Notes under the pieces: model-generated
What the model saw: only the letters and a program-made list of their open reading frames with translations
Database searches by the model: none
Told to the model about the DNA's origin: nothing
Made by a program: the position numbers and the translations under genes
From: a candidate division WOR-3 bacterium
Lineage (GTDB): Bacteria; Hydrothermota; 32-111
Length of the DNA stretch: 64,000 nucleotides
Assembly (NCBI GenBank): GCA_039804205.1
Contig: JBDRZY010000003.1
Location: 23,857 to 87,856, forward strand
Direction of reading: 5' to 3'
Shown: positions 1 through 55,517 of the stretch, in pieces
Layout: the number at the start of each line of letters is the position of its first letter
How positions within the stretch are numbered: the stretch's first letter is position 1

Positions 1-111
1 TGCCTCCTGAAGCGTGTTTAGGGTGTTTGACGGGCATTGTACTTGGAGCACTTTTCGCTTATTTTGTTCCTATTGGTAGTTTATCTTTCTTTTTATAAAA
101 AGGAGTATTTT

Positions 112-570
112 ATGAAAATTTTTAAATGTTCAGTTTGTGGTTATATCCATAAAGGAGATAATCCTCCTGATTTTTGCCCAAACTGTAGATCTCCAAAAGA
201 GAAATTTGTTGAGGTTGAAAAAGAGGATCCAACAAGAATATTTTTGTTCTATGGTGAAAAGGTATCATATTCTGACAAAATAGAAATAAATCCTTTCTTT
301 GATGGTTTAGAAATTTTGTCTCCCTTCATATACAATATGCCTGTTGGTTCAAAAGTTCCATTACATAAACATCCTGAAAATGATGAATTGTTTTTTGTTT
401 TAAGAGGAAAAATTAAATTTTACATTGACGGAAAGTTTCAAATTTTACAACAAGGTGATATGGCCTATGCTTCAAAGGGAGTTGTTCATAATTTTGAAAA
501 TATTTCCGATGAACCTGGAATATTTCTATCTGTAAAAAGTCCAAAACCCGTAACAACAGAATTTGTTTAA
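112..570 (+). CDS. rubredoxin-like zinc-ribbon / cupin-domain fusion protein
   Basis: ORF track 37..570. The N-terminus has two Cys knuckles (CSVCGY...CPNC) typical of a rubredoxin-type metal site. The C-terminus has cupin motifs (HKHPENDELFFVLRGK ... GDMAYASKGVVHNFEN). Start moved to ATG 112 because AAAGGAG (99-105) sits 6 nt upstream and the 25 residues before it look like non-coding read-through. Confidence 0.6.
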   Translation: MKIFKCSVCGYIHKGDNPPDFCPNCRSPKEKFVEVEKEDPTRIFLFYGEKVSYSDKIEINPFFDGLEILSPFIYNMPVGSKVPLHKHPENDELFFVLRGKIKFYIDGKFQILQQGDMAYASKGVVHNFENISDEPGIFLSVKSPKPVTTEFV

Positions 571-575
571 ACCTC

Positions 576-604
576 TTGACTGTTATTAGTTTGAAAGATA
601 AAAT
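576..604 (+). promoter_or_regulatory. sigma-70-like promoter of the giant repeat-protein gene (TTGACT-17-TAAAAT)
   Basis: TTGACT at 576-581, 17-nt spacer, TAAAAT at 599-604. A strong RBS GAGAGGAGG (613-621) lies 5 nt before ATG 627. Confidence 0.45.
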
Positions 605-626
605 TATTCTCTGAGAGGAGGTCTCG

Positions 627-3600
627 ATGAGAAAAATATCTCTATTTATTCTTTTATCTTTATTTACAATCGCTGTTTTTTCAGCTTCCTTTAATTTAAG
701 AACTCCAAATGGAAATGAGAATTATATAGTTGGAAATCAGATGCCTATACACTGGGATATTACTGGAAGTGCCGCATCAGCAAGATTGGAATATTCAATC
801 GATGGTGGTACAAACTGGGTTTTAATATACAGTTCAACACAGAATGATGGAGATTATCTCTGGACAGTTCCGAACAATCCTTCACTTACATGTAAAATAA
901 GAATTTCAAATCCATCAGATCCAAACGACTTTGATGTTAGTGATACTTTTTTTGTTATATCAAGACCTGAGATATTTATTAAAAAACCAGTTCAGAATGA
1001 TATTCTTATTATCGGAGAAAATTATCCGATCCACTGGGATTGGACAGGTGTTTTTTCAAATGTAAAACTTGAATACACAACTGACGGTGGCACAAACTGG
1101 ACGGTTATTACGAGTTCTACTCCAAACGATGGAGAATATATTTGGAGTGTTCCTAACTTTCCATCAACTCAGTGTAAAATAAGGATAACGAACACTACCG
1201 ATCCAAACTCTTTTGCTGTAACTGAAAACACTTTTACCATCGCAAACAATAGTTTAACTTTGATAACTCCGAATGGTGGAGAACAGTACATTACAGGGAA
1301 ATATTATCCGATATACTGGCTTTGGAGTGGATCTTTTACAAGTGTTAAACTTGAATATTCTGCTGATTCTGGAAACATCTGGAACAGTATAACAACTTCA
1401 ACCACAAATGATGGAAGTCATAACTGGTTGATTCCTTCGATAAATCCATCATCAAAATGTTTACTGAAGATTACGAACGTTTCAAATCCAGCTGTTTATG
1501 ATATATCCGATTATCCTTTTTCAATACTTTCAACTTCCCTTACTCTTTTAACACCAAATGGAGGCGAAACTTTTGTGGCTGGGACAAAAGCGAACATAAG
1601 TTGGGATTGGGAAGGGTCTATCGCTAATGTTAAACTGGAATATTCATCTGATGGTGGAGTGAACTGGAACTCTATAACAACATCTACAGCATGTGATGGA
1701 AGTTATCTATGGACTGTTCCGAATATTTCAACGAACAATCTTTTAATAAAAATAACAAATGTTAACGATGTGAACTGTTACGATATTTCAAATTCCCAAT
1801 CAAGTATAGTGACAGCACAGATAGATATAACTTATCCAAATGGTGGTGAACAGTTGATAGTTGGCGAAAAGTATCCTATAAACTGGAATTGGAGTGGGTC
1901 GTTTGCTAATGTGAAGATAGAGTATTCTACCAATAACGGTTCAAGCTGGTCGACAATCGATGCTTCAGATCCGAATGATGGTTCTTTTTTCTGGACTGTT
2001 CCTATAACACCATCATCTCAATGTCTTATAAAAATCTCTGATGCTGCAAATTCTTCTGTTTATGATATATCCAATTTTTCTTTCACGATAAAAAAACCTG
2101 AAATAAAGATAATCAAGATCAATGGGAATGATACACTCATAGCTTCAAACAAATATCCTATTGTCTGGCAAACAGAGGGAACCATTTCAAATGTTAATAT
2201 TGAATATTCAACCAACAATGGAACAACATGGAACACTATTGTAACAAATACTCCAAATGATGGAAGTTATGTCTGGACTGTTCCCTCAACACCATCTTCA
2301 AGTTATCGTTTGAAAATCATAAATTCTTCAGATGTGACATCGTACGATATAAGTGATACAACTTTTGTTGTAAAATCACCTCAGATAAACCTTATATCAC
2401 CTAATGGTGGCGAGACATATAAAACTGGAGAAAAGTATCCCATTTTATGGAGCAGCAATAGCGATTTTTCATCTGTAAATATAGATTATTCTTCCGATAA
2501 CGGAACAACATGGAACTCGATAGTTTTATCTGAAACCAATGATGGTTCATATGTCTGGAATGTTCCTTCAAATTTAACTCCTTCAACAAATTACAGGGTA
2601 AGGATAAGAAATAGCTCTGATAACAATTCTTTTGATATTTCTGATAACACATTTACAATCTCCTCACCTTCTATAAAAATTATATCTCCAGATTCAGGTG
2701 TTTCACTTCTGTCTGGAGAAAAAGTTTCAATAAATTATACCTATGATGCAAATTTTCCTAATGTAAAAATTGAATATTCAGAAGATAATGGTTTGACATG
2801 GAATGTTATTACTAATAGTACTTCAAATACTGGAACTTATATCTGGACCATCCCTAACTTAAATTCAAATGATTGTTTCCTAAAAGTTTTAAATTTGTCT
2901 GATACATTGAATTCCTTTGCTGTTTCAAAAAAATTCTCTATTTCCAAACCAACGATTACGATTAAATCACCAAAATCAAACGATTCACTTTTGGTAGGAA
3001 ATGTATATCAAATTGTATGGATCAATAATGGAGAAATCTCAAATGTTAAAATAGAATATTCTACCGACAATGGCTCTACATGGAATATCATAGTTAGTTC
3101 AACTGTCAATGAAGGTTCATATTACTGGACAATACCTTCAACAATAAGTTCAAATGTTTTAATAAAAGTTTCGGATGTTTCCGATCCTTCTAATTATGCT
3201 GTTAGTGCGAAATTTTCAATCATACCTGCCCAAATTACAATTGTTTCTCCAAACGGTGGAGAAACTGTGATTGCTGGTGAATATTTCCCAATAGAATGGA
3301 ACTGGATAGGTAGTTTTTCTTATGTAAAACTTGAATACTCAACAGATGGTGGATCAACATGGAACAAAATTGTTAATTCTGATACTTTAAATGATGGTTC
3401 TTTTATATGGGCTGTTCCTTCAACAGCAGTCAGTTCAAATGTCCTTTTTAGAGTTTCAAACAATCAGGATCCAACAAACACTTTTGATATTTCCAATGGA
3501 GTTTTTTCAATAGTTTCTCCTTCAATCACCATCATCTCTCCTAATGGAGGGGAGAGTTTGGTTGGTGGAGAGGTTTATCCAATCAGGTGGAGAAGTCAGG

Positions 3601-6600
3601 GTGCTTTTGCAAATGTTATGATAGAATATTCAACAGATGGAATAAACTGGATTTCAATAGATCCCTCAGATCCAAACGATGGTGTATTCAACTGGACGGT
3701 TCCTTCTATTGTCTCTTCGAATGTAAAAATTCGATTAACAAGTACAACCGATGGAAACACTCAGGATATTTCTGATAACAACTTTTCAATAGTATCACCA
3801 AATTTAACCATACTGTCACCCAACGGTGGAGAAAATTTTGTTTCAGGTGATATTTTACCTATCCACTGGAAAAATAATGGAATAGTTTCAAATGTAAAAA
3901 TTGAGTATTCAACAAACAATGGTAATACATGGAATACAGTTATTTCGTCAACCACAAATAATGGATATTACAGATGGACAATACCTTCGCTTGTAGTTTC
4001 AGATTCTGTAAAATTAAGAGTTATAAGTACATCAGATTCTCTAACAAAAGATATAACTGACGGATTGGTTTCTATTAAAAGACCAACGATAAAAGTTTTA
4101 ACCCCAAATGGTTCTGAAAATTTGACTGTAGGAGAATATACTCCAATTCACTGGGAAAATGATGGCCAATTTTCAAATGTTAAAATAGAGTATTCAACTG
4201 ATGGGGGAACAGTCTGGAAAACTATTTCATCTTCAGAAACAAATGATGGTAATTATATCTGGAAAGTTCCGAACGATGTTTCAAACAACTGTATGATTAG
4301 AGTAACAAACACCTCTGATAACCTTTCCTATGACATAAGTGATAACAAATTTTCAATTCTAAAACCTACAGTTTCGATATTCAATCCAGATTCAGCAGCG
4401 GTACTGGTTGTTGGAAACAGATATCCAATTTACTGGAATTGGACTGGAACAGTTGATAGTGTGATCATAGAATTATACTATAAAGTTTCAGGAATCGTTC
4501 AAAGTACATTCATCTCGACAGCGACCTTAAACACGGGAAGTTTTATTTTTACGGTTCCAAATTATGTAAGTGACAGTTGCTGGATAAAGGTTACAAGTAC
4601 CGCAAACGATTCTGTATATTCTTTGTCAAAGGTCTTTTCAATAAAAAGACCAATCTATAACATAGTACAACCAAATGGAGGAGAAAAATTTTATCGTGGT
4701 GAAAAACTTGAAATTAACTGGAACTGGATCGGTGGACCTGATTCTGTTTCATTGTTCTATTCTCTCGATGGAGGATTGAACTACAGTGCAATTTCTACTG
4801 TAAAAAATGCTGGTTCTTATTTATGGAAAGCACCTCATTATTCTTTCAATACATATAAAATCAAGGTCATGTCAACCAAGGATAACTATGCTTACGATGA
4901 ATCGAACAATAATTTTTCAGTGAGTTATCCTATAATGAATATTGATCAACCAGTAGTTGGTGATATATGTTATTATAACAATTATTTTCCAATTTATACA
5001 ACGAACAGGGGATTCATCAATTCTGATTCTGTCTTGATTAGAATAACAAGCAATATTTTGGGAACAAAAAATATTGGTATTTTTCCAATAAATGAATATT
5101 TTACTTTTAAAGATACTTTCACTGATACAATTGATACTATTGAAATCAAGATTTATGATAAAACTGGAACATACCTTTACGATACATCTGATAAAGTTCC
5201 GGTTGTTCAATCTCCTTTGAAAGATACGATACTTTTCCCGAATCAAAACGATACAATGTATGTTGATGAAATTTACTATATAATTTGGAATTCATACTCT
5301 TTACTCCCAAGCGATAGTGTTGAACTTTATTATTCTACAGATGGAATAAATTTCATCAAATATGGTTCCAAAACAGCAAACACGAATTATAGATTGTTCC
5401 CACTTCCTCATAATGCTTCTTCAAATAATTTTATTATCAGGCTTGATTTTTATGATTCCTTAAATATCTTTAAAAAGAGTTTAAACGTAAACAATCTTAT
5501 TGTAAAAAAATCTATTTTTGATCTTGTTTATCCTGATAATACGGATACTCTTTATGTTGGTAGGAATCATAACATAATTTGGAGAACAGTAAAAGGTAAA
5601 CCAACTTCTGTTCAAATATATTACAATACTGATGGAATAACATGGAAAGAGGTAAAGAGTCAGGTTCCAGATACAGGATCTTATTTATGGACGATTCCAA
5701 ATGAACCAACTTCAAACGCTGTAATCAGAATAGAAGAATATGGAGATAATCAGGTAACTGCATATTCACAGAGTTTTGTAATAAAACCGCAGGAAATTTT
5801 TATAACCTCACCTTTATCGAATGATACTTTTGTATCTGGAAGGGACTATCATATAAGTTGGTATAACCTTGGTGGAGTTGATTCTGTAAACATATATTAT
5901 TCAATCGACGGTGGTTCAAACTGGATATATATCGCCAAACAAGTGAATTCCAACTCCTATAAATGGACAGTTCCAAATTATTCTTCCAATAAAGCACTTG
6001 TAAAAGTTGAATTCACAAGAAACAGCAATGTGTTTGGTGTTTCGGATACATTTACCATAATCCCTCAAAACATTTTGGTCACATATCCTGATAGTTCAAC
6101 TATATGGTATGCTGGGAACAAATATTATATAACATGGGATTATACAGGTAACTTTTCAAATGTTAAAATAACTTATTCAATTGATAATGGTAAGAATTGG
6201 AATGTTATCACTAACTCAACAACAAACTCTCAAAACTATCTATGGACTTTACCTCAAATTTATTCAGATTCTGTTCTGGTAAAAGTATCCAATACTGATG
6301 ATACAACAAAGTTTGATGTTTCTTCTCCGTTTAGAGTGATTCCACAACAGATAACAGTAAAGTATCCATTTTCAACTGAAAGTTTGATTTCTGGTAGACA
6401 ATACAACATTACCTGGGTTTACAAAGGACTTTTTGATACATCGATAGTTGAATATTCTACCAACAATGGAATAAACTGGAACACACTCGGTAAAACTCTT
6501 GCATCGAACAGATACTATCTCTGGACAACTCCAGATGTAAAGAGTGATTCAACTCTTATAAGGATAGTCAACAAAGATAATACCTCAATTCTTGGAGTTT

Positions 6601-9600
6601 CAGAATTGTTCTCAATTTCAAATAAAATCATAACGATAAGTTCACCGAAATTAAATGATGAATACATAGTTGGAGAAAAGGCACTGATCACTTTTGATTT
6701 TTTGGGTTCTTCAAACGATTCAGTTATAATTTCATACTCAACCGATGGTGGAACAATATGGACACAAATTGATACGATTCCATCTTCCACTCAATATCTT
6801 GAATGGACTATTCCAAATGTTATAAGTTCAAATTGCTTTATTAAGATAACCTGTTTAAGGTTAACATCATCATCAGCAACAAGTGAAAGATTTTCGATAA
6901 TTCCTCAAACAATAAATGTTACCTCACCTCTTTCAAGTTCAGAATGGATTGCTGGTAGGAAATACTATATAACATGGAATTATACTGGAAGTTTTTCGAA
7001 TGTTGATCTTGAGTATTCAACAAATGGTGGCTCCACATGGCAGACGATCACTACAACAACGAACTCGAAATATTACCTCTGGACTCTACCGAACATCTCT
7101 TCTTCCAATTCTCTTGTAAGGGTGAAAAATAGTTCAAATACTTCTGTATTTGGTGTTTCTCCTATTTTTACCATGAAATATCCATCGATAACTGTTGTTT
7201 CGCCCGGATTATCGGATACTCTACTCTGTGGAAAATATTATTATATTACCTGGTATTCTAACATGGGAAGTGGTGATAGTGTTGTTATTTCTTATTCAAA
7301 GAATGGAGGAACAACCTACACAATCATAGATACCATAAGTGCTACACAAAAATACTTTAAGTGGAAGGTCCCTGAAATCGGAGCAACAAACTGTTTAGTT
7401 AAAGTAACAGGTTATGAATCACCTGTTATTGAGGGGTATTCAAAGCAGTTTGTGATAAAGGATCAATCAATAACCATAACATATCCAGATATAAATGATA
7501 CGATTTTGTCTCTTTCACCTTTCTATATTACATGGGATTATACTGGTGGACTAGATACACTTGTTGGTGAATACTCTTTTGATAATGGTTCAAACTGGAC
7601 TACATTCTCAAATTCAATTGTTGCATCGAATCAAAATTATCTGTTTAATCCTTTCCCGATTTCAAACTCTTTACAGACCCTTATCAGATTGAAAAATAAA
7701 GCGAATGTTCTCGTTCAGGGTGTTTCCAATCAAATTGTAACAGTATATCCAGTAATAGACATAACATCGTTTAAGCCAAATTCATCATTTACTGTTGGAA
7801 GTAAAATATTTATCACATGGAAAAACAATGGTCTTATTGATAAAGTAAACATTTATTATTCTATTGATAATGGAGCAAGCTGGAATTTGATAGTTTCATC
7901 TTATACCAATTCTGGATATTATGAGTGGACTGTGCCCAATTACATATCCGATAGTTGTTTTATTAAAGTCAGTTATACATCTCTTGAAAATGTATATGAT
8001 GTTTCTGAAAAATTTTCTATAATACCTCAAACCATAGTTCTCTTTTCTCCAGTATTCAACGATTCTTTGATGGTGTCAAAAACTTACCCGATAACCTGGT
8101 ATAACACTGGAACAATCGGTAATATAATGCTTGAATACTCACTTGATGGTGGATCAATCTGGAATACGATAACAGGTTCAACAGTGAACAACAAGTATTA
8201 TGAATGGACTTTACCAACAACCTTATCTTCAACTTCGAATGGTTTGATAAGAGTAAGTAATGTCGGAAACCTTAATGTTTTTGATCTTTCTGATAATTTT
8301 AGAATTATACCTCAAAAACTCGAAATAACATATCCAACCTTAAACTCTCAATTCTTTGTGAGTAGAAAATATATAATAACCTGGAAAACAATTGGAACCA
8401 TATCCACTGTTAACCTCTATTATTCTCTGGATAATGGTGCAAATTGGATTTCTCTTGCTTCTAATTTAACAAACAACGGTTATTATGAATGGACGGTTCC
8501 AGATGTTAATTCAAACCTTGTTCTTATAAGGGTAACCAATTCGAATAACGAATCTGTTTATGATGATAGTGAAGTGTTCTCGATCGTTCCCCAACTTGTT
8601 CTTGTTAACTCTCCGATCTCTACAGATAGATGGATAGTTGGAAGAAAATATTTTATAACGTGGACAAATATTGGAACAATTTCAAAGGTAAGAATAGAGT
8701 ATTCATATAATGATGGTGTCAACTGGAACATGGTGGTGGATAACCTTTCGAATACAAACTCTTATGAATGGACGATTCCAAATACACCTTCTGAAAACTG
8801 CTTTGTAAAAGTATCGAATTATGATAATACGAGTGTATACGGAACAAGTTCAAAATTCTCTATCCCGTTACAAACGATAGAGGTTCTTTCTCCAAAAATC
8901 ACAGATGATTATATTTCTGGCAATAAATATTTTATTACATGGAAATATACTGGAACAATCTCCAATGTTGATATTCAGTATTCAAAGGATAACGGAGCGA
9001 CATGGATATATGTGGCAACAGGTGTTGCCAACAATGGTTATTATGAATGGACGGTTCCAACCGAAGATTCTGATAACTGTTTGATAAAAGTTTTGAACAG
9101 TAGTAACAACAATGTTTATGGCGTATCAGAAAGGTTTACAATTTTACCTCAAGATATAACAGTAACATCTCCAAGTTCTTCTGATACGATGATCGCGGGA
9201 AGGAAATACTATATCACATGGAGAAACACAGGTGCTTTTACAAACTGTGATATTTTCTATTCAACGGATCTTGGTTTGCAATGGAGATCAATAGCATCAG
9301 GTGTTTCAAATACAGGTTATTATGAATGGACGATACCTGATATTGGTGTGTCCGACATGGCTTTAATAAAAATATCAAACTCCTCTCAATCAACGATCTA
9401 TGGAATATCAGATACTTTTGTTATTTCAAAACCTGTTGTAAAATTCACCTCTCCTGTTCTAGGAAATGTATTTCAAACAACAAAAAAATACTTTTTAACA
9501 TGGACAACTCTTGGAACTATTTTACAGTACAATCTTGAGATCTCTTATGATAAGGGTGTTTCTTGGATTCAGATTGTTGCAAACCAGAACAATAGCGGGA

Positions 9601-10028
9601 ACTATGAATGGACTGTTCCATCAGGTATGTATTCCGATAGTTGTATGCTTAAACTGACATCAAGTTCAAACAGTTCAATCTATTATTACTCGGATCTGTT
9701 CTCTATAGTCTCATATTCGAACATGGATAACATTTCTGTGTTGAAAAACAAAACCATTAAATATTTTAACACAAAACTCAATAACAGTATGAAAGAGAAA
9801 ATTCTATTTGTGGAGATTCCGGAGGATTGTTATTCTCAAATAGAAATTTTTGATCTTACTGGAAGAAGTGTTGGAAAAATTTATGATGGAAAGATCGATT
9901 CTGGAGTACATAGATTTGAACTTGAAAATTATCTGAACAGTAAGGGAATCTACTTCATAAAAGTTATATCAAAAAAAGATGGAAAAACTCTTTATGAAAG
10001 AAATATTAAAATGTTGAATTTGAGATGA
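627..10028 (+). CDS. giant (3,133 aa) secreted surface protein: signal peptide, ~33 tandem ~88-aa Ig-like modules, C-terminal T9SS sorting domain
   Basis: ORF track. The N-terminus MRKISLFILLSLFTIAVFSAS is a signal peptide. The repeating module consensus is [LI]TSPNGGE..(x)..YPI.W...G...NVK[IL]EYS[TS]DGG.TWN.I..ST.NDGSY.WTVP....C.IK[IV]...D....DISD..FSI, which resembles the Kre9/KNH-like GPI-anchored Ig-fold family. The last ~80 aa (IEIFDLTGRSVGKIYDGKIDSGVHRFELENYLNSKGIYFIKVISKKDGKTLYERNIKML) match the Por-secretion-tail (T9SS CTD) pattern. Confidence 0.85.
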   Translation: MRKISLFILLSLFTIAVFSASFNLRTPNGNENYIVGNQMPIHWDITGSAASARLEYSIDGGTNWVLIYSSTQNDGDYLWTVPNNPSLTCKIRISNPSDPNDFDVSDTFFVISRPEIFIKKPVQNDILIIGENYPIHWDWTGVFSNVKLEYTTDGGTNWTVITSSTPNDGEYIWSVPNFPSTQCKIRITNTTDPNSFAVTENTFTIANNSLTLITPNGGEQYITGKYYPIYWLWSGSFTSVKLEYSADSGNIWNSITTSTTNDGSHNWLIPSINPSSKCLLKITNVSNPAVYDISDYPFSILSTSLTLLTPNGGETFVAGTKANISWDWEGSIANVKLEYSSDGGVNWNSITTSTACDGSYLWTVPNISTNNLLIKITNVNDVNCYDISNSQSSIVTAQIDITYPNGGEQLIVGEKYPINWNWSGSFANVKIEYSTNNGSSWSTIDASDPNDGSFFWTVPITPSSQCLIKISDAANSSVYDISNFSFTIKKPEIKIIKINGNDTLIASNKYPIVWQTEGTISNVNIEYSTNNGTTWNTIVTNTPNDGSYVWTVPSTPSSSYRLKIINSSDVTSYDISDTTFVVKSPQINLISPNGGETYKTGEKYPILWSSNSDFSSVNIDYSSDNGTTWNSIVLSETNDGSYVWNVPSNLTPSTNYRVRIRNSSDNNSFDISDNTFTISSPSIKIISPDSGVSLLSGEKVSINYTYDANFPNVKIEYSEDNGLTWNVITNSTSNTGTYIWTIPNLNSNDCFLKVLNLSDTLNSFAVSKKFSISKPTITIKSPKSNDSLLVGNVYQIVWINNGEISNVKIEYSTDNGSTWNIIVSSTVNEGSYYWTIPSTISSNVLIKVSDVSDPSNYAVSAKFSIIPAQITIVSPNGGETVIAGEYFPIEWNWIGSFSYVKLEYSTDGGSTWNKIVNSDTLNDGSFIWAVPSTAVSSNVLFRVSNNQDPTNTFDISNGVFSIVSPSITIISPNGGESLVGGEVYPIRWRSQGAFANVMIEYSTDGINWISIDPSDPNDGVFNWTVPSIVSSNVKIRLTSTTDGNTQDISDNNFSIVSPNLTILSPNGGENFVSGDILPIHWKNNGIVSNVKIEYSTNNGNTWNTVISSTTNNGYYRWTIPSLVVSDSVKLRVISTSDSLTKDITDGLVSIKRPTIKVLTPNGSENLTVGEYTPIHWENDGQFSNVKIEYSTDGGTVWKTISSSETNDGNYIWKVPNDVSNNCMIRVTNTSDNLSYDISDNKFSILKPTVSIFNPDSAAVLVVGNRYPIYWNWTGTVDSVIIELYYKVSGIVQSTFISTATLNTGSFIFTVPNYVSDSCWIKVTSTANDSVYSLSKVFSIKRPIYNIVQPNGGEKFYRGEKLEINWNWIGGPDSVSLFYSLDGGLNYSAISTVKNAGSYLWKAPHYSFNTYKIKVMSTKDNYAYDESNNNFSVSYPIMNIDQPVVGDICYYNNYFPIYTTNRGFINSDSVLIRITSNILGTKNIGIFPINEYFTFKDTFTDTIDTIEIKIYDKTGTYLYDTSDKVPVVQSPLKDTILFPNQNDTMYVDEIYYIIWNSYSLLPSDSVELYYSTDGINFIKYGSKTANTNYRLFPLPHNASSNNFIIRLDFYDSLNIFKKSLNVNNLIVKKSIFDLVYPDNTDTLYVGRNHNIIWRTVKGKPTSVQIYYNTDGITWKEVKSQVPDTGSYLWTIPNEPTSNAVIRIEEYGDNQVTAYSQSFVIKPQEIFITSPLSNDTFVSGRDYHISWYNLGGVDSVNIYYSIDGGSNWIYIAKQVNSNSYKWTVPNYSSNKALVKVEFTRNSNVFGVSDTFTIIPQNILVTYPDSSTIWYAGNKYYITWDYTGNFSNVKITYSIDNGKNWNVITNSTTNSQNYLWTLPQIYSDSVLVKVSNTDDTTKFDVSSPFRVIPQQITVKYPFSTESLISGRQYNITWVYKGLFDTSIVEYSTNNGINWNTLGKTLASNRYYLWTTPDVKSDSTLIRIVNKDNTSILGVSELFSISNKIITISSPKLNDEYIVGEKALITFDFLGSSNDSVIISYSTDGGTIWTQIDTIPSSTQYLEWTIPNVISSNCFIKITCLRLTSSSATSERFSIIPQTINVTSPLSSSEWIAGRKYYITWNYTGSFSNVDLEYSTNGGSTWQTITTTTNSKYYLWTLPNISSSNSLVRVKNSSNTSVFGVSPIFTMKYPSITVVSPGLSDTLLCGKYYYITWYSNMGSGDSVVISYSKNGGTTYTIIDTISATQKYFKWKVPEIGATNCLVKVTGYESPVIEGYSKQFVIKDQSITITYPDINDTILSLSPFYITWDYTGGLDTLVGEYSFDNGSNWTTFSNSIVASNQNYLFNPFPISNSLQTLIRLKNKANVLVQGVSNQIVTVYPVIDITSFKPNSSFTVGSKIFITWKNNGLIDKVNIYYSIDNGASWNLIVSSYTNSGYYEWTVPNYISDSCFIKVSYTSLENVYDVSEKFSIIPQTIVLFSPVFNDSLMVSKTYPITWYNTGTIGNIMLEYSLDGGSIWNTITGSTVNNKYYEWTLPTTLSSTSNGLIRVSNVGNLNVFDLSDNFRIIPQKLEITYPTLNSQFFVSRKYIITWKTIGTISTVNLYYSLDNGANWISLASNLTNNGYYEWTVPDVNSNLVLIRVTNSNNESVYDDSEVFSIVPQLVLVNSPISTDRWIVGRKYFITWTNIGTISKVRIEYSYNDGVNWNMVVDNLSNTNSYEWTIPNTPSENCFVKVSNYDNTSVYGTSSKFSIPLQTIEVLSPKITDDYISGNKYFITWKYTGTISNVDIQYSKDNGATWIYVATGVANNGYYEWTVPTEDSDNCLIKVLNSSNNNVYGVSERFTILPQDITVTSPSSSDTMIAGRKYYITWRNTGAFTNCDIFYSTDLGLQWRSIASGVSNTGYYEWTIPDIGVSDMALIKISNSSQSTIYGISDTFVISKPVVKFTSPVLGNVFQTTKKYFLTWTTLGTILQYNLEISYDKGVSWIQIVANQNNSGNYEWTVPSGMYSDSCMLKLTSSSNSSIYYYSDLFSIVSYSNMDNISVLKNKTIKYFNTKLNNSMKEKILFVEIPEDCYSQIEIFDLTGRSVGKIYDGKIDSGVHRFELENYLNSKGIYFIKVISKKDGKTLYERNIKMLNLR

Positions 10029-10029
10029 T

Positions 10030-10560
10030 ATGAAAAAAGAACAACCAGTAATCTTTTTAGATGGTAAAAAGGTCATACTCTCTCCAATTGAAGATGATGA
10101 CCTTTTTACCATTCAAAAAATTCTGAACGATCCTGATGTAAGAAAGAACCTTGCTGAAAGATTCCCACGAAACAGGATCATGTTAAAGGAGTTAATTTCT
10201 TTAAATAAAGAAAAAAAGGGAATTTTTTTAAAAATTGTTGAAAAAGAAAATTTTGAAACTGTTGGATTGATAAGTTTATCCGATTTTAATTGGCCAAACA
10301 GGAGAGCGATGCTTGCGATAGCTATTGGTAAAAATTTTCAGAATAAAGGATATGGAACCGAGTCGACAAAACTACTTGTTGATTACGGTTTTAAAAATCT
10401 ACAACTACATAAAATCTGTCTTGAGGTTTATGATTTTAATAAAAACGCTATAAAAATGTATAAAAAATTGGGTTTTAAACGGGAAGGAATTTTTAAAAAA
10501 CATTCGTTCAAAGATGGGAAATACGTTGATCTAATATTTATGTCCCTTTTAAATGAGTAG
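10030..10560 (+). CDS. GNAT family N-acetyltransferase (RimJ/RimL-like)
   Basis: ORF track. It has the GNAT core QNKGYGTESTKLLVDYGF...ICLEVYDFNKNAIKMYKKLGFKREG. Its ATG lies 1 nt after the TGA of the giant gene, indicating translational coupling. Confidence 0.7.
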   Translation: MKKEQPVIFLDGKKVILSPIEDDDLFTIQKILNDPDVRKNLAERFPRNRIMLKELISLNKEKKGIFLKIVEKENFETVGLISLSDFNWPNRRAMLAIAIGKNFQNKGYGTESTKLLVDYGFKNLQLHKICLEVYDFNKNAIKMYKKLGFKREGIFKKHSFKDGKYVDLIFMSLLNE

Positions 10561-11095
10561 AAAAAAATTTTTTTTATTTATCTTTTTTATTTTAACGAAT
10601 TTGATTTATGGAGATCCGATCGTTTTCTATCCTGGATCAGAAGAGAAGAGTGAACCTTTTGACAATATTTTCATTTTTAATTCGTCAGGTTTATGTTCTC
10701 TTGTAATAAAAGATCTAACAGGTTTTTACGATTTTGGAAAAGATGTTCTGATAAATTCAAAACCATTTTTAAAGGTTGACGTATCAGACAGAAATTACAT
10801 TGTTCTTGATACTTTTTTCTATTTATCAACCAAAAAATCTTTTGCGTGGTATCTTGAAAGTTATGAGAATGGTGTTTTGGAAAGGAGTAATATCCTTTTT
10901 TTCAACACTGGTGATGTTAATATACCATGTACATCAAATCAGAGTAAAGATGATTATCTTTCTATAATTTTTAAAATTTTTGGTATTGCAGGTTTTCATC
11001 CGACCGGAAGAGTATGGGTGAATGGAATAGAAATGGATATAAAAGATTTAAATTTTTATGATATTAAAAGTATAAGATGGAAAACAAAAAGATAA
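10553..11095 (+). CDS. hypothetical secreted protein (signal peptide)
   Basis: ORF track. The N-terminus is hydrophobic (FFLFIFFILTNLIYG). No family recognised. Overlaps the GNAT gene by 8 nt. Confidence 0.5.
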   Translation: MSRKKFFLFIFFILTNLIYGDPIVFYPGSEEKSEPFDNIFIFNSSGLCSLVIKDLTGFYDFGKDVLINSKPFLKVDVSDRNYIVLDTFFYLSTKKSFAWYLESYENGVLERSNILFFNTGDVNIPCTSNQSKDDYLSIIFKIFGIAGFHPTGRVWVNGIEMDIKDLNFYDIKSIRWKTKR

Positions 11096-11721
11096 TAATT
11101 CCCTTGATTTTAACACTATCGACTTTTTTTGTATTTTCAAAGGAAATAGGGGTTGTTAAAAATTCAAAAGGTTTTGTTTTCCAGAATGTGGGTGAGGAAA
11201 AAGAACCGTTAAAGAAAGGGGATATAATAAAAGATAGTTTCAACGTATCACTTGATAGATTTTCGTTGTTGGATGTTGTTTTGATTGACGGAAAAAGTGA
11301 AATGTCTGTTGTTGGAAATAGTGAATTTTCAACAAACATTTTTGAAATTTCTGATCAAACCGTTTTCAGATTAAATCTTAACTATGGAAACTTTTTCATT
11401 AAAACTTTTCAAAAAAATTTTCAGTTAAAAATTTTTGATACATTTATTTTTTTAGATAGTTCATATTTTTTCGTTGATTTAACGGATTCATTGGCGGAAA
11501 TTTTTATCATTTATTGTAAAAATTTCGAAGTTGAAAATGAGTACGGTAAACTAAGTGGGTCGAAAAATGAACAGATAATTTTAAGAAAGGGAGAAAACCC
11601 ATATAAACTTGAATCAGAAAAGAAAATTTCTAAACCAAAAATCTATAATGGTGAAAATATTATAGAAATAGAGTTGGAAAACTACAAAAATGATACGATT
11701 TATGTTCATATTGAAAACTAA
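11077..11721 (+). CDS. secreted FecR-domain-like protein
   Basis: ORF track. Signal peptide present. The segment VVLIDGKSEMSVVGNSEF...QTVFRLNLNYGNFFIKT fits the FecR-domain pattern (L.DGS...L...S......R.V.L..G.a.F.V). Confidence 0.4.
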   Translation: MENKKIIIPLILTLSTFFVFSKEIGVVKNSKGFVFQNVGEEKEPLKKGDIIKDSFNVSLDRFSLLDVVLIDGKSEMSVVGNSEFSTNIFEISDQTVFRLNLNYGNFFIKTFQKNFQLKIFDTFIFLDSSYFFVDLTDSLAEIFIIYCKNFEVENEYGKLSGSKNEQIILRKGENPYKLESEKKISKPKIYNGENIIEIELENYKNDTIYVHIEN

Positions 11722-13720
11722 GAAAATTTTTATCGTGGTTATTTTTGTTTTGTTATGCTTAAAAATTTTCTCTGGATTTATGGTGGATTACTCAAAAATA
11801 GATGAACTTTACAAAGGGGAAAACTTTACGATTTTTTTAATTTTTAAAGAGGATCCGTATAAGATTAGAGAAACATACATAGTTCTTTCAGATTTTAATA
11901 TTGAAAAAAAGTTTAAAATGAATTTTGAGGGTAACAGAGCTTTTATTTCAATACCTTATGATTCGTTACCACAAAAAGATTTCTATTACTATTTTGAAAT
12001 TTTAACAAAAGATAACAGAGTAGAATATCTACCGGAGATAATTCAGGAAAGGATGAAAAATATAGTTAGATTTATTAAAGAAAAAGAATTAAAAAAGGAA
12101 ATCATTTTATTGTTACCTGAAAATGAAGGAAAAATTGATCCTGATAATTTTGTATTTTCAGTTTATATTCCTGAAGGAACAAAAGATGTCAAAATAATAA
12201 TGGATGGAGAGGATATAACAAAAAAATGTTTAACAGGGGAAAAAATATTAACCTATGCACCAGAAAAACTTTTAAAACCGTCAAAATACAGAATAGATGT
12301 TGTAAATGAAGGGAAACTTGTCAAAACTTATCATTTTAACATTTCGAATAAAGATTTTTTTGAGAATCTTTTTAATGGAGAAATATCGTATAACTGCAGG
12401 TACGAAACAAACAATCTGGAAAACTTTTTCAACTCATATTCTGCTTATCTCTATGGTAACGTTGGTAATTTTTTATACAGTTTTAACATACACAATAATG
12501 TGTATTCAGGAGAAAATTTTTGGGACAAAAATAAAATAAACATTCTTCTAAATTTCAAAAAAGTTAATCTGAACTTGTTGGATCTTTATTATTATGATAG
12601 TTTTTCAAATTATGGTTTGATACCTTTAAAAGGATTTTACTTTTCCTATCAAGATTCTTTAACCCGTCTCTCAAATATTACAGCAAAAATAACGGATACT
12701 GAGAAAATTTTTTACATTATGACTTTTGATAAAAAATTGAAATTCTTTGGCTTGGGATTTGAAAACATGGTGTTGAAGGACTCCCTATTTCATATAAACT
12801 TCAAATTAAACAACGATTTATACCTCAACAGAAAGGTAAAACTATTCTACAACATCTCATCCCCATTCGTTTTATTGGAAAAAGATTTTTCAAATGGTAT
12901 GAGGGATTTGAGCAAATTTTCTTATAAAATCGGAAGCGAAATAGATTTAAAAAAATATCATGCTCTAATGTATATGATGAAAATTTCACACTACGATCAC
13001 ACTTTTTCTTATCATGATTACAATAAAATCTTTTTTAAAAATCAAATATTCGTAACAGAAGATCTTATTTTGACAGGAGATCTTGTTGTTAAAAATGATG
13101 AACAGGATAAAATTTTATTTTATAACTCAATCCGTAATGATCTCTTTACAAATTTGAACATTATCTATTCAAATAAAAATCTTCCATCTCTGTTTTTTTC
13201 TATCTCAAATAATATCTTCTCAAATAGAAATTTTGAAAACGATAAAGATTTTGTCTTCAAAACGACGACTGGAACATACTACGATACAAAATTAAAAGAG
13301 TTTGATCTTTTAGGAAAATTTTTTATAAATCAAACAAATTATAAATTTTCTGAAGAAGAAAAAAATCTTTCGACAGAGTATAATTTTTTATTTTCTTCAA
13401 CTTACAAAAGTATTTTTAGAACATCCATGAGTTTGAAAACATTGATAACTGATGAAAAGATAGAGAGGATAATTGATGAAAGATATGGTCTATATATTGG
13501 ATATGTAGATTCTGAAAACAGATTCTCGATGGGATTATTCACACAAATCTTTTTGAAACAAGATTCTGGTGTTTTAAAGAGAATGTTTTTATCTTTTTCC
13601 CCGGATCTGAAGTTGAAATTTAGATTTATAAATCTGAACTTTTATCCGTGTTTATGTCTAAATTTGTTGAGTCATAGTTATTATACATCTTTATCGTTAA
13701 ATTCTTCAACGACATTTTGA
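11690..13720 (+). CDS. hypothetical large exported protein, possible outer-membrane beta-barrel (676 aa)
   Basis: ORF track. N-terminal signal/anchor (IFIVVIFVLLCLKIFSG). Aromatic-rich with alternating hydrophobic residues and a C-terminal Phe (..SSTTF). No family recognised. Confidence 0.45.
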   Translation: MIRFMFILKTKKIFIVVIFVLLCLKIFSGFMVDYSKIDELYKGENFTIFLIFKEDPYKIRETYIVLSDFNIEKKFKMNFEGNRAFISIPYDSLPQKDFYYYFEILTKDNRVEYLPEIIQERMKNIVRFIKEKELKKEIILLLPENEGKIDPDNFVFSVYIPEGTKDVKIIMDGEDITKKCLTGEKILTYAPEKLLKPSKYRIDVVNEGKLVKTYHFNISNKDFFENLFNGEISYNCRYETNNLENFFNSYSAYLYGNVGNFLYSFNIHNNVYSGENFWDKNKINILLNFKKVNLNLLDLYYYDSFSNYGLIPLKGFYFSYQDSLTRLSNITAKITDTEKIFYIMTFDKKLKFFGLGFENMVLKDSLFHINFKLNNDLYLNRKVKLFYNISSPFVLLEKDFSNGMRDLSKFSYKIGSEIDLKKYHALMYMMKISHYDHTFSYHDYNKIFFKNQIFVTEDLILTGDLVVKNDEQDKILFYNSIRNDLFTNLNIIYSNKNLPSLFFSISNNIFSNRNFENDKDFVFKTTTGTYYDTKLKEFDLLGKFFINQTNYKFSEEEKNLSTEYNFLFSSTYKSIFRTSMSLKTLITDEKIERIIDERYGLYIGYVDSENRFSMGLFTQIFLKQDSGVLKRMFLSFSPDLKLKFRFINLNFYPCLCLNLLSHSYYTSLSLNSSTTF

Positions 13721-17029: not shown

Positions 17030-19588
17030 TTATATTTCTATTTGGTATAATATTTTTATCTCTTCATCGTTATAGAATATTTTACCATTATCTTCAATAA
17101 AGATTTCATTTATATCAACATTTGTTTCTATAACCTGGTCTTTATTTTTCTTTAAAGGATAGTATATACCATAATATTTAATTTTAAAATTTTCAACTAA
17201 AAAACTTCTTTTAAAATCAAAAAGATTTTTTAAATAATTCCCATTTTGTGAAAAATTTTCCTGAATTTTTGTTTCTATATAATTTGAATTGAGTATCGTT
17301 GAAAATAGTGTAAAATGATCGATTAATATTATTGACGATGATGGATCTTTACCACCGGAAAGTATTTTCGCTTCATTTATTGTTACGCCGTATATATCGA
17401 TATCTCCAAAAGCGTTTATTGAAATGTTAACATCTCGATTAACTATACCACTTGCTATTCCAACGCCCACTCTGAACAACGATTTGAACTCAGGAGGAAG
17501 AAGTGCATACTCTATACCTTCATGGATCAATTTTTTTTCGTGAACATCGAAAAACCACTCTCTATAGTTTATGTAATTATCTTTGATGAACTGTTCAGCG
17601 TTTTCTACAAGTTTAAGTGAACATTTTAATGATTCTATTGATGAGGTCGAGGATTCTTTGATTATAAGATCTGAACCCGTTGCTATAGAATGTCTTATCA
17701 GAACATTTTTTGATGAAACGGACTCTTTGAAAAGAGTTCTATAAATTTCTTTTGAGTTTGAACAAAATATTGCGATACCTCCGTCACCGGTTTCTTTTAA
17801 AGGTAATCCAAAATTGTTTTTTATAGTATTATTTATGATATGTTGAAATTTCTTCATAATAAATTTTTGTTTTTCAGCATTGTTCAATTTTGAACTCATA
17901 TAACTTGATCCTCTAATATCATAAACAAGCACACTAACTAGTTTTGAATAATTCTTTTTTATAATGTTTTTTAGCTGTTCAACATCTGTATCTAAAAATC
18001 TTTGAGAAACCCCTTTCTCTGTATTTGAAATGAAAATAACCCTGTTAAAAGGTAAAAGGTTTACAGAGAGATTAAAGTTTAGAAGTTCTTGTTTGCTCTC
18101 CTGGTTTGTCAATTCTATGTTGAAAATTGTAAATGAATCGAAGAGAATCGAAACAATAAATTTGTCGATCAAATTTTCAACGATTTGTAAAAATTTTGAC
18201 TTTAAAAGTTCAAAATTAAATTTCTTTTGAAATTTCGATTCAACAAACAGATCCGAAATAAAATTTATCTCTTTTTGAACAATGCTGTTCTTTTTTTCAC
18301 TATACTCTTTTTTTAATTCTTCAAAAGAATTTTTTACAACTTTTATAATCTGTGGTTTAAATTTTTCAAAAAAGTTTTCAAAATCTTTTGAGTAATCAAA
18401 ATATATTAAAATTGAGAGAATAATATCATTTTTATCAAGTGTACCCTCATTTTTTAATATCTCGATATACTGGTCAAATGTCAGGTTTCTAAGATTTTCA
18501 TTTTTTACCATCTTCTTTTGAAAATTGTTCCATCTTTCTGTCAATTTATTCGCCTGCAATATATTTCCCATTACACTTCTGTTGAAGTCAATTATAAAAC
18601 TATTGATCTTGTTTGTAACCGTTGGATTTACAGGATATTTTATAGAGTCGATGGTTTCCTTTTTTATGTTCGAAGAAAAATTTTCTAAAGCGTCAACCAT
18701 ATCGTTTTTTATCTGTTCAAGTTGTTTTTCAAGGTCATCCTTTTCTTTGAGTAAAAATTCTCTCGTTTGTTTGGATTTTTTGATTATCGATTTTATCACT
18801 ATATCTTTTAATTCATCTCTTAAAAAAGGTAGATAGATGATATTGTCTGGTTTCATTATATCGTCTATTGACCATATAGTCCTGTTTTCATAATATTCAA
18901 TTATTTCCAATTCTTTTTCAAGGCTGGCTGCCGTATTGAACATTTTTAAAAGGTTGATAAATGTGTTCAATGAAAATCCATGTTCGTTAAAGAAACTTTC
19001 CCTTTCGATTTCAAGATCTTTGTTAATAATAGAGTTTCTTGTAAACTTTAAATTATCGAAGATCTTTGTTTGAAACTCTCTGTTAAAAATGTTTGTGGAA
19101 TAAAGTTCGTTTCTTACATCTTTTAAAATCTCTCTTATTCCATTAAGTTTTTCTTCAAAAAGAGTTTCATTGTGATCAAGATTTTCTTTGTGGGTATAAA
19201 ATACGCTGAAAAAAATTTTTAGCACTACGAGTTCAAACAAAAGGGAAGAATTCTGGTTTGTTTCAATAACATTTTTATAAAATTTTTTTATTTGTTGAGA
19301 AACCTCATTTTTATCGAGGGAGTTTAATATGTATAGTTTGAAAAGTGACTGTAACATTTCAAATTGATCAAAAGGAATCAATATAAAAATTTTACCATTC
19401 GATGAGTTGTCTAAAAAAATTTGTATCTGTGAAAGGTTAATGTTTCGATTTTTTAGGAGTATTAAGAGCCTCTGAATATTTTCTTGATACTGTTGTTTCT
19501 GACTAAAATTTTCATCAATATTTGATACAAATTTTGATTGGTTGAAAGTGATTAAAAACAGGTCTTTATATTCTACTTTTAAACCCAT
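17030..19588 (-). CDS. large protein with C-terminal class III nucleotidyl cyclase homology domain (divergent) and ~480-aa N-terminal domain of unknown function
   Basis: ORF track, 852 aa. The C-terminal part aligns to the adenylate/guanylate cyclase pattern: VLVYDIRGSSYMS (metal Asp), KETGDGGIAIF (second Asp), RVGVGIASGIV and YGVTINEAKIL. The last of these corresponds to GdtVNlAsRl, with Lys replacing the transition-state Arg, and there is a ~50-aa insertion. Its ATG overlaps the pyrC stop (TAATG). Confidence 0.5.
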   Translation of the reverse strand: MGLKVEYKDLFLITFNQSKFVSNIDENFSQKQQYQENIQRLLILLKNRNINLSQIQIFLDNSSNGKIFILIPFDQFEMLQSLFKLYILNSLDKNEVSQQIKKFYKNVIETNQNSSLLFELVVLKIFFSVFYTHKENLDHNETLFEEKLNGIREILKDVRNELYSTNIFNREFQTKIFDNLKFTRNSIINKDLEIERESFFNEHGFSLNTFINLLKMFNTAASLEKELEIIEYYENRTIWSIDDIMKPDNIIYLPFLRDELKDIVIKSIIKKSKQTREFLLKEKDDLEKQLEQIKNDMVDALENFSSNIKKETIDSIKYPVNPTVTNKINSFIIDFNRSVMGNILQANKLTERWNNFQKKMVKNENLRNLTFDQYIEILKNEGTLDKNDIILSILIYFDYSKDFENFFEKFKPQIIKVVKNSFEELKKEYSEKKNSIVQKEINFISDLFVESKFQKKFNFELLKSKFLQIVENLIDKFIVSILFDSFTIFNIELTNQESKQELLNFNLSVNLLPFNRVIFISNTEKGVSQRFLDTDVEQLKNIIKKNYSKLVSVLVYDIRGSSYMSSKLNNAEKQKFIMKKFQHIINNTIKNNFGLPLKETGDGGIAIFCSNSKEIYRTLFKESVSSKNVLIRHSIATGSDLIIKESSTSSIESLKCSLKLVENAEQFIKDNYINYREWFFDVHEKKLIHEGIEYALLPPEFKSLFRVGVGIASGIVNRDVNISINAFGDIDIYGVTINEAKILSGGKDPSSSIILIDHFTLFSTILNSNYIETKIQENFSQNGNYLKNLFDFKRSFLVENFKIKYYGIYYPLKKNKDQVIETNVDINEIFIEDNGKIFYNDEEIKILYQIEI

Positions 19589-22316: not shown

Positions 22317-22778
22317 CTACTTTTTAAAGTTCTGTTTTATAAACTCTATAGATTCATCTATCAAACCTTTTTTTAAAAGTTCAACAACATGTTCAATTTT
22401 TTTTTGATCGATATTTGTACTTTCGGTTGTTAAATCGTCAAAAGTTAAGTCCTGTGTCGAAGAGGTAGTATTGAATAGAAAGGAAGAACCATCAGCAACT
22501 TTCTCTTCATTTTTTTCAAAAATATTCTCTCTGGAAATGTCCTTTGATGGCAGTTTTGTATTGTCTTTCTCAACATTTTCTGTATCTGGAAATATTTCAC
22601 CCTCATCTTTTGAAGTTGGTGATGTTCCCAGATTTTCTATTCCAGAAATTCCTTCATCTTTTTTTTCTTCAACTTTTGGAGTAACTTTTTCCTTTTTCTC
22701 CTGAAAAAGTTTTGCAAACGGATTATCTTTTTCATTTTCTTTGTTTGTCGAAATTTTTTTTAAAAAATCTTCAGACAT
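22317..22778 (-). CDS. hypothetical acidic Glu/Lys-rich protein
   Basis: ORF track, 153 aa of low-complexity acidic sequence with a structured-looking C-terminus. Overlaps the upstream TPR gene by 8 nt and ends 5 nt before pyrR. Confidence 0.4.
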   Translation of the reverse strand: MSEDFLKKISTNKENEKDNPFAKLFQEKKEKVTPKVEEKKDEGISGIENLGTSPTSKDEGEIFPDTENVEKDNTKLPSKDISRENIFEKNEEKVADGSSFLFNTTSSTQDLTFDDLTTESTNIDQKKIEHVVELLKKGLIDESIEFIKQNFKK

Positions 22779-23805: not shown

Positions 23806-23818
23806 ATATACTCCTTTT

Positions 23819-45528: not shown

Positions 45529-45542
45529 TTTTCTCCCCCTTT

Positions 45543-46766: not shown

Positions 46767-46783
46767 ATTTACCTCTCTTTCAT

Positions 46784-53106: not shown

Positions 53107-53107
53107 A

Positions 53108-55512: not shown

Positions 55513-55517
55513 ATTTT

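Follow-up and report, generated by a model that had tools for sequence, protein, structure and literature searches.

What does the largest gene of this stretch of DNA encode, and what would its product do for the cell? The stretch, which we call the window, comprises 64 kb of contig JBDRZY010000003.1 from a metagenome-assembled genome (MAG) of candidate division WOR-3 (NCBI: Caldifarciminota). The gene is one ATG-to-stop open reading frame (ORF) encoding 3,133 amino acids (aa), or 351 kDa for the full ORF. An earlier note on this DNA had described a single long ORF for a Sec-exported giant protein of immunoglobulin (Ig)-like modules, with a type IX secretion system (T9SS) tag. The frame proved to be real, and the remainder of the description was upheld by a predicted signal peptide, by a match to a type A T9SS C-terminal sorting domain (CTD), and by the predicted fold of the modules. 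We consider it probable that the product is a giant cell-surface fibre of this WOR-3 bacterium, exported via Sec and then the T9SS, processed by a sortase, and joined to glycolipid as a chain of 32 modules with the first module (M1) distal. On its sequence matches the giant protein belongs to the Kre9_KNH domain family and to the T9SS type A CTD proteins. Its basic classification as a T9SS-tagged repetitive surface protein is unaltered by the present analysis, and it is probably the dominant surface structure of this uncultured bacterium.

The architecture was resolved with a module profile built from 13 seed modules and run along the giant protein. This yielded 32 contiguous, linker-free modules spanning aa 21-3030. 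Thirty of the 32 were recovered with E values of 1e-13 to 1e-45; M17 matched at 3e-8 and the M16 slot gave a fragmentary match (0.27), and both could be aligned. A head-to-tail protein repeat had been anticipated, and this stands, but the count is 32 rather than about 33 and the period is 92-97 aa (~94) rather than about 88. The further claim that almost every module carries one Cys at the same position did not hold. The Cys column is filled in 13 of the 32 modules and 16 modules contain no Cys at all, and a disulphide- or Cys-based role was rejected because so few modules have the conserved Cys. Near-invariant module residues are P7, I21, W23, G27, Y36, S37, G41, W59, P62 and S85. The array is acidic (isoelectric point [pI], 4.7), and Ser, Thr and Asn together make up 34% of it.

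Along its length the array passes from a coherent N-terminal group of modules (M1-M13) through a divergent center to a looser C-terminal group (M20-M32) (Table 1). Mean pairwise identity is 45% within M1-M13, 37% within M20-M32 and 35% between the two groups. The proposal of two distinct sub-arrays was therefore only half right: the consensus does differ (PNGGE/YPI.W/NDGSY versus YYITW/GYYEW/IPQ), but average-linkage clustering separated M16, M17, M18 and M21/25 first and gave no two-way split, so that two discrete module families were rejected. The degenerate stretch reported in the middle of the protein was confirmed. M16 (aa 1436-1532), in which the Asp-box motif described below is lost and insertions are present, is the most divergent module, and M14-M18 are divergent to a lesser degree.

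An AlphaFold2 (AF2) model of M13, computed on an alignment of 31 modules, is a nine-strand all-beta sandwich with a mean predicted local distance difference test (pLDDT) score of 97.2. Its closest folds include the fibronectin type III (FnIII)-like modules of a cellulase, a porphyran-binding carbohydrate-binding module (CBM), and Ig domains of glycoside hydrolases; the label "Ig-like" agrees with the predicted beta-sandwich and with its structural matches. A Foldseek search of the PDB returned nothing at an E value of ≤1e-3 (best, 1.5e-3; TM score, ~0.5). As modelled, the module fold is a generic FnIII/Ig sandwich without a close solved relative. These neighbors invite the idea that the protein is a multivalent glycan-binding fibre, its modules acting as weak CBMs that capture polysaccharide or bind glycan-coated surfaces by avidity, and in Pfam the module is grouped with the Kre9/KNH domain known from cell-wall proteins of fungi. 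The fold likeness is generic, however; the near-invariant residues look structural or belong to the Asp-box rather than to a binding site, as far as their mapping onto the model suggests; and no polysaccharide-utilisation genes adjoin the gene. We regard this reading as very unlikely.

The Asp-box, S-x-D-x-G-x-T-W, is present in approximately 26 of the 32 modules and sits, in the model, in the hairpin joining the strand of residues 31-37 to that of residues 45-52. Matches of the protein to Reelin_subrepeat-B (173 bits), CHB_HEX_C and BNR all rest on this motif (YS.D.G.TW). A PDB sequence search with the whole giant protein gave no match, and one with the module profile gave Asp-box matches only (reelin, sialidases), over a region of 17-36 residues. 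Since these matches rest on one short motif and the fold is a single sandwich, a BNR/Asp-box beta-propeller of the sialidase type was rejected; each Asp-box sits in its own 94-aa beta-sandwich and not in a propeller blade. The modules thus have the same hairpin motif as Asp-box (BNR) proteins such as sialidase propellers and reelin subrepeats but, unlike these, are predicted to form single beta-sandwiches.

The match to the Kre9_KNH family (PF10342) that the earlier note expected was found, at 79.6 bits against a cut-off of 24.6, and three stretches of the protein pass on their own. Membership is indicated by the passed Pfam gathering score together with the Ig-like beta-sandwich fold, and precomputed annotations give this family for almost every homologue. 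The fungal Kre9/KNH proteins, which are Ser-Thr-rich and glycosylphosphatidylinositol (GPI) anchored, share the domain model and are likewise secreted or cell-surface proteins. They have one domain plus a GPI anchor (PMC8079714), whereas the giant combines 32 copies with a signal peptide of bacterial type and a tag for the T9SS. The database name "GPI-anchored" is misleading for the bacterial homologues. The papers on PF10342 that we found all concern fungi.

How old is this array, and is it real? Tandem Repeats Finder (TRF) detected no array at the DNA level, reporting only trivial matches of 9-12 nucleotides (nt); the repeats therefore exist at the protein level only. Even the most similar pairs of modules reach no more than 57% protein and 63% DNA identity. 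At residues that are identical between modules the same codon is used in 46.7% of cases, against 44.7% expected from the codon usage of the gene, and this nearness to expectation implies that synonymous sites between modules are saturated. The observation that PNGGE codons differ between copies was reproduced: the three 15-mers quoted for it were located at nt 1269, 1554 and 2400, and no two of the eight PNGGE motifs have the same 15-mer. In a Nei-Gojobori comparison with the orthologue P0001 (91% identity), the ratio of nonsynonymous to synonymous divergence (dN/dS) was 0.107 over the whole gene, with a dS of 0.47; per module it ranged from 0.00 to 0.35, and in M1-M6 from 0.00 to 0.04. The array, as had been argued from its codons, is ancient and under purifying selection. 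We propose that the divergence of the module sequences makes the array recombinationally stable.

These data also bear on whether the gene could be an assembly or gene-calling artefact, whether through collapse or expansion of a repeat or through a spurious call of a long frame in AT-rich DNA. The source is a MAG, and an exact database look-up of the giant protein gave no record. Against this, inter-module DNA identity never exceeds 63% and TRF saw no array, orthologues with the same 32 modules occur in other assemblies at 51-99.6% identity, and both the dN/dS of 0.107 and the mean pLDDT of 97 for the module model are at odds with a spurious frame. One other assembly (GCA_039804125.1; locus L005) has a gene call of 3,133 aa that is 99.6% identical. 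Because genes of equal length are called in other metagenome-derived assemblies, collapse or expansion of the repeat is excluded; the evidence on assembly, which the earlier note had named as decisive, runs in the opposite direction, with equal gene length in six other assemblies. We treat the artefact explanation as refuted by module DNA divergence, recurrence, dN/dS and fold, and give it practically no chance of being correct.

Comparison of copy number across related genomes showed that the number of modules is frozen. Four full-length orthologues were aligned: P0001 (91% identity; 3,135 aa), P0002 (80%; 3,131 aa), P0003 (70%; 3,131 aa) and P0004 (51%; 3,148 aa). Each has 32 modules with nearly identical boundaries, and the best match of a module is the module at the same position for 32 of 32 modules in the first three and for 29 of 32 in P0004. 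Gene calls in the six other assemblies (loci L001, L002, L005, L006, L007 and L008) are 3,131-3,148 aa long. This agrees with the idea that length is set by module number. Because the best match is the same-position module, the modules are not interchangeable spacers; each position has its own conserved identity, without gain, loss, shuffling or homogenisation. Conservation among orthologues is highest in M1-M13. The best-conserved block in P0004 is M1-M4 (64-69% identity), which would be the distal modules if the protein is anchored via its C terminus. A variable-length repeat protein of the "periscope" type was rejected on the ceiling of 63% DNA identity, the lack of a TRF array, and the 32 modules in all four full-length orthologues.

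Other lineages show the same behavior at other lengths. One class with 46 modules (4,827-4,836 aa; P0009/12/17/18/27/35) shows colinearity at 40% identity, and another with 50 modules (5,205-5,236 aa; P0014/21/22/23/24/28/31/34/40) does so at 35-40%. Invariance of module number down to 35-51% identity in several lineages is the opposite of what is seen in variable-length repeat adhesins, and such frozen arrays suggest that the length of the fibre and the order of its modules have a function in their own right.

One part of the gene departs from this pattern. In a mosaic segment that covers M16 entirely, together with the C-terminal half of M15 and most of M17, identity with P0001 is 60-76% at the nucleotide level and 40-64% at third codon positions, compared with ~90% and ~80%, respectively, in the rest of the gene. 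In the core of the segment (aa 1411-1598) third-position identity falls to 40-45%. Relative to P0001, dS in the segment is saturated and dN is raised, and aa 1505-1551 are closer to P0002 (79% nt identity) than to P0001 (62%), which gives the segment its mosaic pattern. Because synonymous sites are saturated as well as nonsynonymous change being raised, the comparison points to an old divergent allele, introduced or kept by recombination, and not just to a loosening of constraint on the protein. As a hypothesis, the segment may be a specificity site or an antigenic or phage-exposed one. There are smaller signs of exchange elsewhere. The dS of M08 is only 0.066 against P0001, and the 11 aa differences that distinguish the L005 copy fall into two patches, aa 2589-2716 and 2937-2957 (window positions 8391..8774 and 9435..9497). 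The residues of the second patch match those of P0001, which suggests recent allelic exchange.

We then considered how the protein would leave the cell. The N terminus reads as a putative Sec-type signal peptide, with basic residues in the n-region, a hydrophobic core, small residues in the c-region and no lipobox Cys; across orthologues the type of peptide is kept and its sequence is not. At the other end, the earlier note had assigned the final residues to the T9SS sorting domain, and the expected match to TIGR04183 was obtained (28.2 bits; cut-off, 23) when the last 102 aa were scanned alone. A CTD profile of our own, built from the C termini of 46 homologues annotated with PF18962 and run on the 189 ORFs of ≥60 aa in the window, matched three of them: the giant (E = 1.8e-7; four orthologues, ~1e-10), a 483-aa protein, and a PorU-like protein. 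Alignment of these three CTDs shows that they have the D..G and G.YF motif pattern in common.

The latter two proteins are encoded together 20-21 kb downstream of the giant gene. The 483-aa protein is a second type A CTD cargo and is named a T9SS type A sorting domain-containing protein by NCBI. The adjacent gene encodes a 1,501-aa cysteine peptidase of the C25 family, a candidate T9SS sortase. It scores 209 bits (E = 8.5e-62) against the NCBIfam model T9SS_sortase PorU, and its best PDB sequence match is PorU (6za2; E = 9.7e-10), ahead of gingipain R. Our CTD profile matches aa 1417-1501 of this protein, and such a CTD-like tail fits, since PorU itself retains its CTD uncleaved (PMC11285876). 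The next gene overlaps the stop codon of the PorU-like gene and encodes a 322-aa secreted protein, ending in Phe, that may be a PorV-like outer-membrane partner. Taken together, the PorU-like peptidase with its CTD tail, the CTD cargo and the possible PorV-like neighbor suggest, at the level of sequence, that WOR-3 has a divergent T9SS. The locus is flanked by genes for GT4 and GT2 glycosyltransferases and polysaccharide biosynthesis (flippase-like), which could build a surface glycan for the attachment of T9SS cargo.

In the reading that we favor, the protein would cross the inner membrane via Sec by means of its N-terminal signal peptide, and the T9SS would recognise the type A CTD and move the protein across the outer membrane. 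If events resemble those in Porphyromonas gingivalis, removal of the CTD would then fall to the PorU-like C25 sortase, whose gene lies 21 kb downstream, and the freed C terminus would be linked to glycolipid at the surface. What the CTD, PorU and anchoring to A-LPS do in that organism is described in PMC11285876, PMC4804311 and PMC5053529. Because anchoring would be via the C terminus after removal of the CTD, module 32 would be cell-proximal and module 1 would form the distal tip. At roughly 3.5-4 nm per FnIII-like module, the fibre would be ~110-130 nm long. The number and order of its modules would be fixed by selection, the most constrained modules, M1-M6, would lie distally and be the best candidates for a contact function, and the hypervariable M15-M17 segment would be exchanged between lineages.

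Several observations weigh against this interpretation. The CTD is borderline: the Pfam model PF18962 (Por_Secre_tail) gives 24.1 bits on the C terminus against a cut-off of 27, and the sole CTD model reported in the whole-protein scan is type C, with 20 bits where the cut-off is 40. The PorU-like protein falls far under the curated equivalog cut-off of 420 and is named only "C25 family cysteine peptidase" by NCBI. None of SprA/Sov, PorK/L/M/N, PorV or PorZ was identified in the scanned parts of the 64-kb window. Some close architectural relatives, namely Omnitrophota proteins and P0005/P0006/P0015, have no detectable CTD, and for this reason the module array is not tied to the T9SS. The giant protein contains no distinct ligand-binding domain, and "adhesin" is thus a term of conjecture here. 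For the S-layer-like fibre that the earlier note also offered, there was evidence neither for nor against. In other bacteria, release rather than anchoring is the fate of many type A cargos. Finally, WOR-3 is not among the phyla listed with a T9SS (PMC11285876). In the literature searched we found no paper naming WOR-3 together with "type IX secretion", and the WOR-3 genome and isolate papers examined do not discuss secretion or the cell surface.

Release rather than anchoring would lead to a different picture, in which the protein is exported by the T9SS, loses its CTD, and is shed as a mesh or sheath to serve as a scaffold of extracellular matrix or biofilm. The evidence for export is the same in both cases, and no sequence feature separates anchoring from release; moreover, its acidity, its uniformity and its richness in Ser, Thr and Asn might suit a matrix protein. 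The strict module number and position-specific conservation are nevertheless easier to reconcile with a structure whose length and polarity are defined than with a bulk matrix, domains for oligomerisation or cross-linking are lacking, and the conserved Cys is restricted to 13 of the 32 modules. We consider a released scaffold unlikely and retain the anchored fibre.

The genes immediately downstream raise a further question, that of whether the fibre has dedicated partners. The giant gene is the first of a five-gene cassette that continues with a GNAT acetyltransferase gene, two genes for small secreted proteins (180 and 214 aa) and a gene for a 676-aa secreted protein (Table 1); the last three genes overlap. 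The terminator scan placed no terminator between the giant and GNAT genes, with such sites no commoner than in shuffled sequence. All six of the other assemblies have the genes in the order giant-GNAT-180 aa-214 aa-barrel, among them that with the P0004 locus, where the genes on both outer sides differ. Family searches with the three proteins downstream of the GNAT gene, and with the 322-aa protein and an 852-aa protein encoded elsewhere in the window, gave no matches. The 676-aa protein is likely to be an outer-membrane barrel, according to a model whose mean pLDDT of 56.6 is of low confidence and from which only the fold class is claimed. Only nine homologues of it could be detected, those with a name coming from WOR-3 or unclassified bacteria, and every one that we looked up comes after a giant gene of 3,131-3,148 aa. 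A role of the barrel in anchoring or exporting the fibre is speculation.

In one pair of genomes in which Rho is 98% and aspartate transcarbamoylase (ATCase) 95% identical, identity is 77% for the giant, 78% for the GNAT, 64% for the 214-aa protein, 53% for the 180-aa protein and 48% for the barrel. As judged from these sequences, evolution is faster in the cassette proteins than in the fibre. The loci of the distant Ignavibacteriota giants P0005 and P0009 lack the GNAT/barrel cassette, from which we conclude that it is specific to this lineage.

Conservation of this kind could mean that the barrel and the two small secreted proteins are themselves a dedicated device for exporting or anchoring the giant, whose C terminus would then be no more than a last domain of Ig-like or FlgD_ig-like type. 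No assembly examined departs from the five-gene order, not even that of the 51% orthologue with its different outer flanks; the barrel family is small, lineage limited and always preceded by a giant gene where this was looked up; and the C terminus of P0004 is annotated as FlgD_ig. Set against this, the barrel model is of low confidence and matched no specific transporter family, the cassette evolves much faster than the giant (barrel 48% and giant 77% in the same genome pair), and the CTD passes TIGR04183 and has motifs in common with those of the CTD cargo and PorU-like protein of the window. The T9SS and barrel ideas are not mutually exclusive: SprB, too, needs a dedicated PorP-like barrel, SprF. 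We think it quite unlikely that the cassette replaces the T9SS in handling the fibre. A more inclusive and still doubtful possibility is a lineage-specific five-gene surface-fibre system of WOR-3, in which a ruler of fixed length, with exactly 32 non-interchangeable modules, would carry a swapped M15-M17 specificity or antigenic cassette and leave the cell by a divergent T9SS, a system not known to be described for this phylum.

With an anchored, T9SS-exported fibre as the working interpretation, the protein can be set beside known systems. The comparison with SprB-type gliding adhesins that had been drawn in the earlier note can serve only as an analogy between large T9SS-type surface proteins: no SprB repeat and no type B CTD was found. 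SprB of Flavobacterium johnsoniae is, like the giant, a very large, repetitive, filamentous T9SS cargo, and the downstream barrel described here recalls SprF; SprB is encoded with accessory genes in the sprCDBF operon. It differs in having a type B CTD, its own repeat family and a dependence on the gliding machinery, whereas the giant has a type A CTD and an MCP gene (methyl-accepting chemotaxis protein), not gliding genes, in its region. A gliding adhesin of the SprB type was rejected, as Pfam and NCBIfam scans of the protein, its C terminus and the downstream genes revealed no SprB repeat, TIGR04131 or PorP/SprF at the thresholds applied.

A second comparison is with giant adhesins of type I secretion systems (T1SS). 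In SiiE of Salmonella, with 53 bacterial Ig (BIg) domains, and in MpIBP and other RTX adhesins, dozens of tandem beta-sandwich extenders project from the outer membrane (PMC6272769, PMC7493085). The giant has this extender-array design in common with them, and SiiE-type arrays also consist of diverged repeats. The repeats of MpIBP are identical copies, whereas the modules of the giant reach at most 57% protein identity. T1SS adhesins have an RTX/T1SS signal at the C terminus, a retention module at the N terminus, linkers that bind Ca2+ and distinct ligand-binding domains, none of which was detected in the giant, and their N terminus is cell-proximal, whereas in the giant this would be the C terminus. 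An RTX/T1SS adhesin of the SiiE, LapA or MpIBP type was rejected, there being no RTX/T1SS family match and no adjacent ABC, MFP or TolC gene among the neighbors.

The nearest relatives in design are giant proteins of Ignavibacteriota, Bacteroidota and Omnitrophota. These are built from 20-59 linker-free copies of the same 94-aa Asp-box Kre9_KNH module, and most carry PF18962; examples are P0009 (4,833 aa), P0026 (5,413 aa) and P0058 (Sporocytophaga; 4,059 aa). Database names given to related giants are "T9SS type A sorting domain-containing" and "Ser-Thr-rich GPI-anchored membrane family". They are 26-36% identical to the giant of the window, have 39-59 modules versus 32, and lie in different gene neighborhoods. 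The module family as a whole comprises 36,328 representative proteins at E ≤1e-3 and 16,919 at ≤1e-10, with up to 59 modules and 6,941 aa. The giant of the window is an ordinary-sized member of a common, already annotated and experimentally uncharacterised class; in the literature searched we found no experimental study of its bacterial members. With its frozen array, localised mosaic segment and co-conserved barrel cassette, the locus is a useful entry point to the family.

Table 1. Positions in the window of the giant gene, its parts and other features
Feature	Position	Strand	Evidence or remark
Gene directly upstream of the giant gene	37..570	+	RUBY_RBDX (rubredoxin-like) plus cupin fusion
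Promoter-like site TTGACT-17 nt-TAAAAT	576..604	+	In the 56-nt gap 5' of the giant gene; consensus match only (scan, 10/12), and such sites are no commoner in this DNA than in shuffled sequence
Ribosome-binding site GAGAGGAGG (GAGGAGG, strong)	612..620	+	6 nt 5' of the ATG; direct sequence reading
Giant gene	627..10028	+	One ATG-to-stop frame, largest gene of the window
Predicted Sec-type signal peptide MRKISLFILLSLFTIAVFSA	627..686	+	Basic n-region, hydrophobic core, small-residue c-region
Modules M1-M13, coherent N-terminal group	687..4367	+	Consensus SPNGGE..YPI.W..G.F.NVKIEYS.DGG.TW..I..ST.NDGSY.WTVP
Modules M14-M19, divergent center	4368..6068	+	Profile scores, alignment
Hypervariable mosaic segment (aa ~1364-1598)	4716..5420	+	C-terminal half of M15, all of M16, most of M17
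Modules M20-M32, looser C-terminal group	6069..9716	+	Recurring YYITW and GYYEWT[VI]P motifs, IPQ junction
C-terminal region (aa 3031-3133)	9717..10025	+	Contains the type A T9SS sorting domain core
Type A CTD core (aa 3064-3121)	9816..9989	+	Motifs IEIFDLTGRSV and KGIYFIKV
GNAT (RimJ/RimL-type) acetyltransferase	10030..10560	+	Start 1 nt after the giant stop; Acetyltransf_3, 79.2 bits
Small secreted protein, 180 aa, cassette gene 3	10553..11095	+	Signal peptide visible in sequence; no Pfam/NCBIfam match
Small secreted protein, 214 aa, cassette gene 4	11077..11721	+	No Pfam/NCBIfam match
676-aa secreted protein, putative large outer-membrane beta-barrel, cassette gene 5	11690..13720	+	Invariant C-terminal Phe
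852-aa protein	17030..19588	-	No Pfam/NCBIfam match
Two TPR-repeat proteins	22771..27607	-	
Glycosyltransferase and polysaccharide-biosynthesis genes	28794..29918 and 38585..44369	+	Flank the PorU-like locus
Second type A CTD cargo, 483 aa	29905..31356	+	PF18962, 31.9 vs 27; TIGR04183, 29.7 vs 23; directly 5' of the PorU-like gene
PorU-like C25 cysteine peptidase, 1,501 aa, candidate T9SS sortase	31326..35831	+	Peptidase_C25, 181.8 bits
322-aa secreted protein ending ...SYLF	35828..36796	+	Overlaps the PorU-like stop codon; no family or PDB match
Cell-division/cell-wall cluster	44413..59754	-	ftsZ, ftsA ... mraW/rsmH

The neighbors of the giant gene are a cupin gene, the GNAT gene, three genes for proteins without an assigned function, the MCP gene and the gene for Rho. 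The rubredoxin-like/cupin fusion gene upstream is syntenic in close relatives and absent from the locus of the 51% orthologue. The gene for the 852-aa protein keeps its position by rpmE/rho in related WOR-3 assemblies, at 79-83% identity. Further along, two adjacent genes encode TPR-repeat proteins, one of which (1,262 aa) consists almost wholly of TPR units. An Rfam scan of the window gave no RNA family. The cell-division and cell-wall cluster is ordinary and confirms the chromosomal context of the locus.

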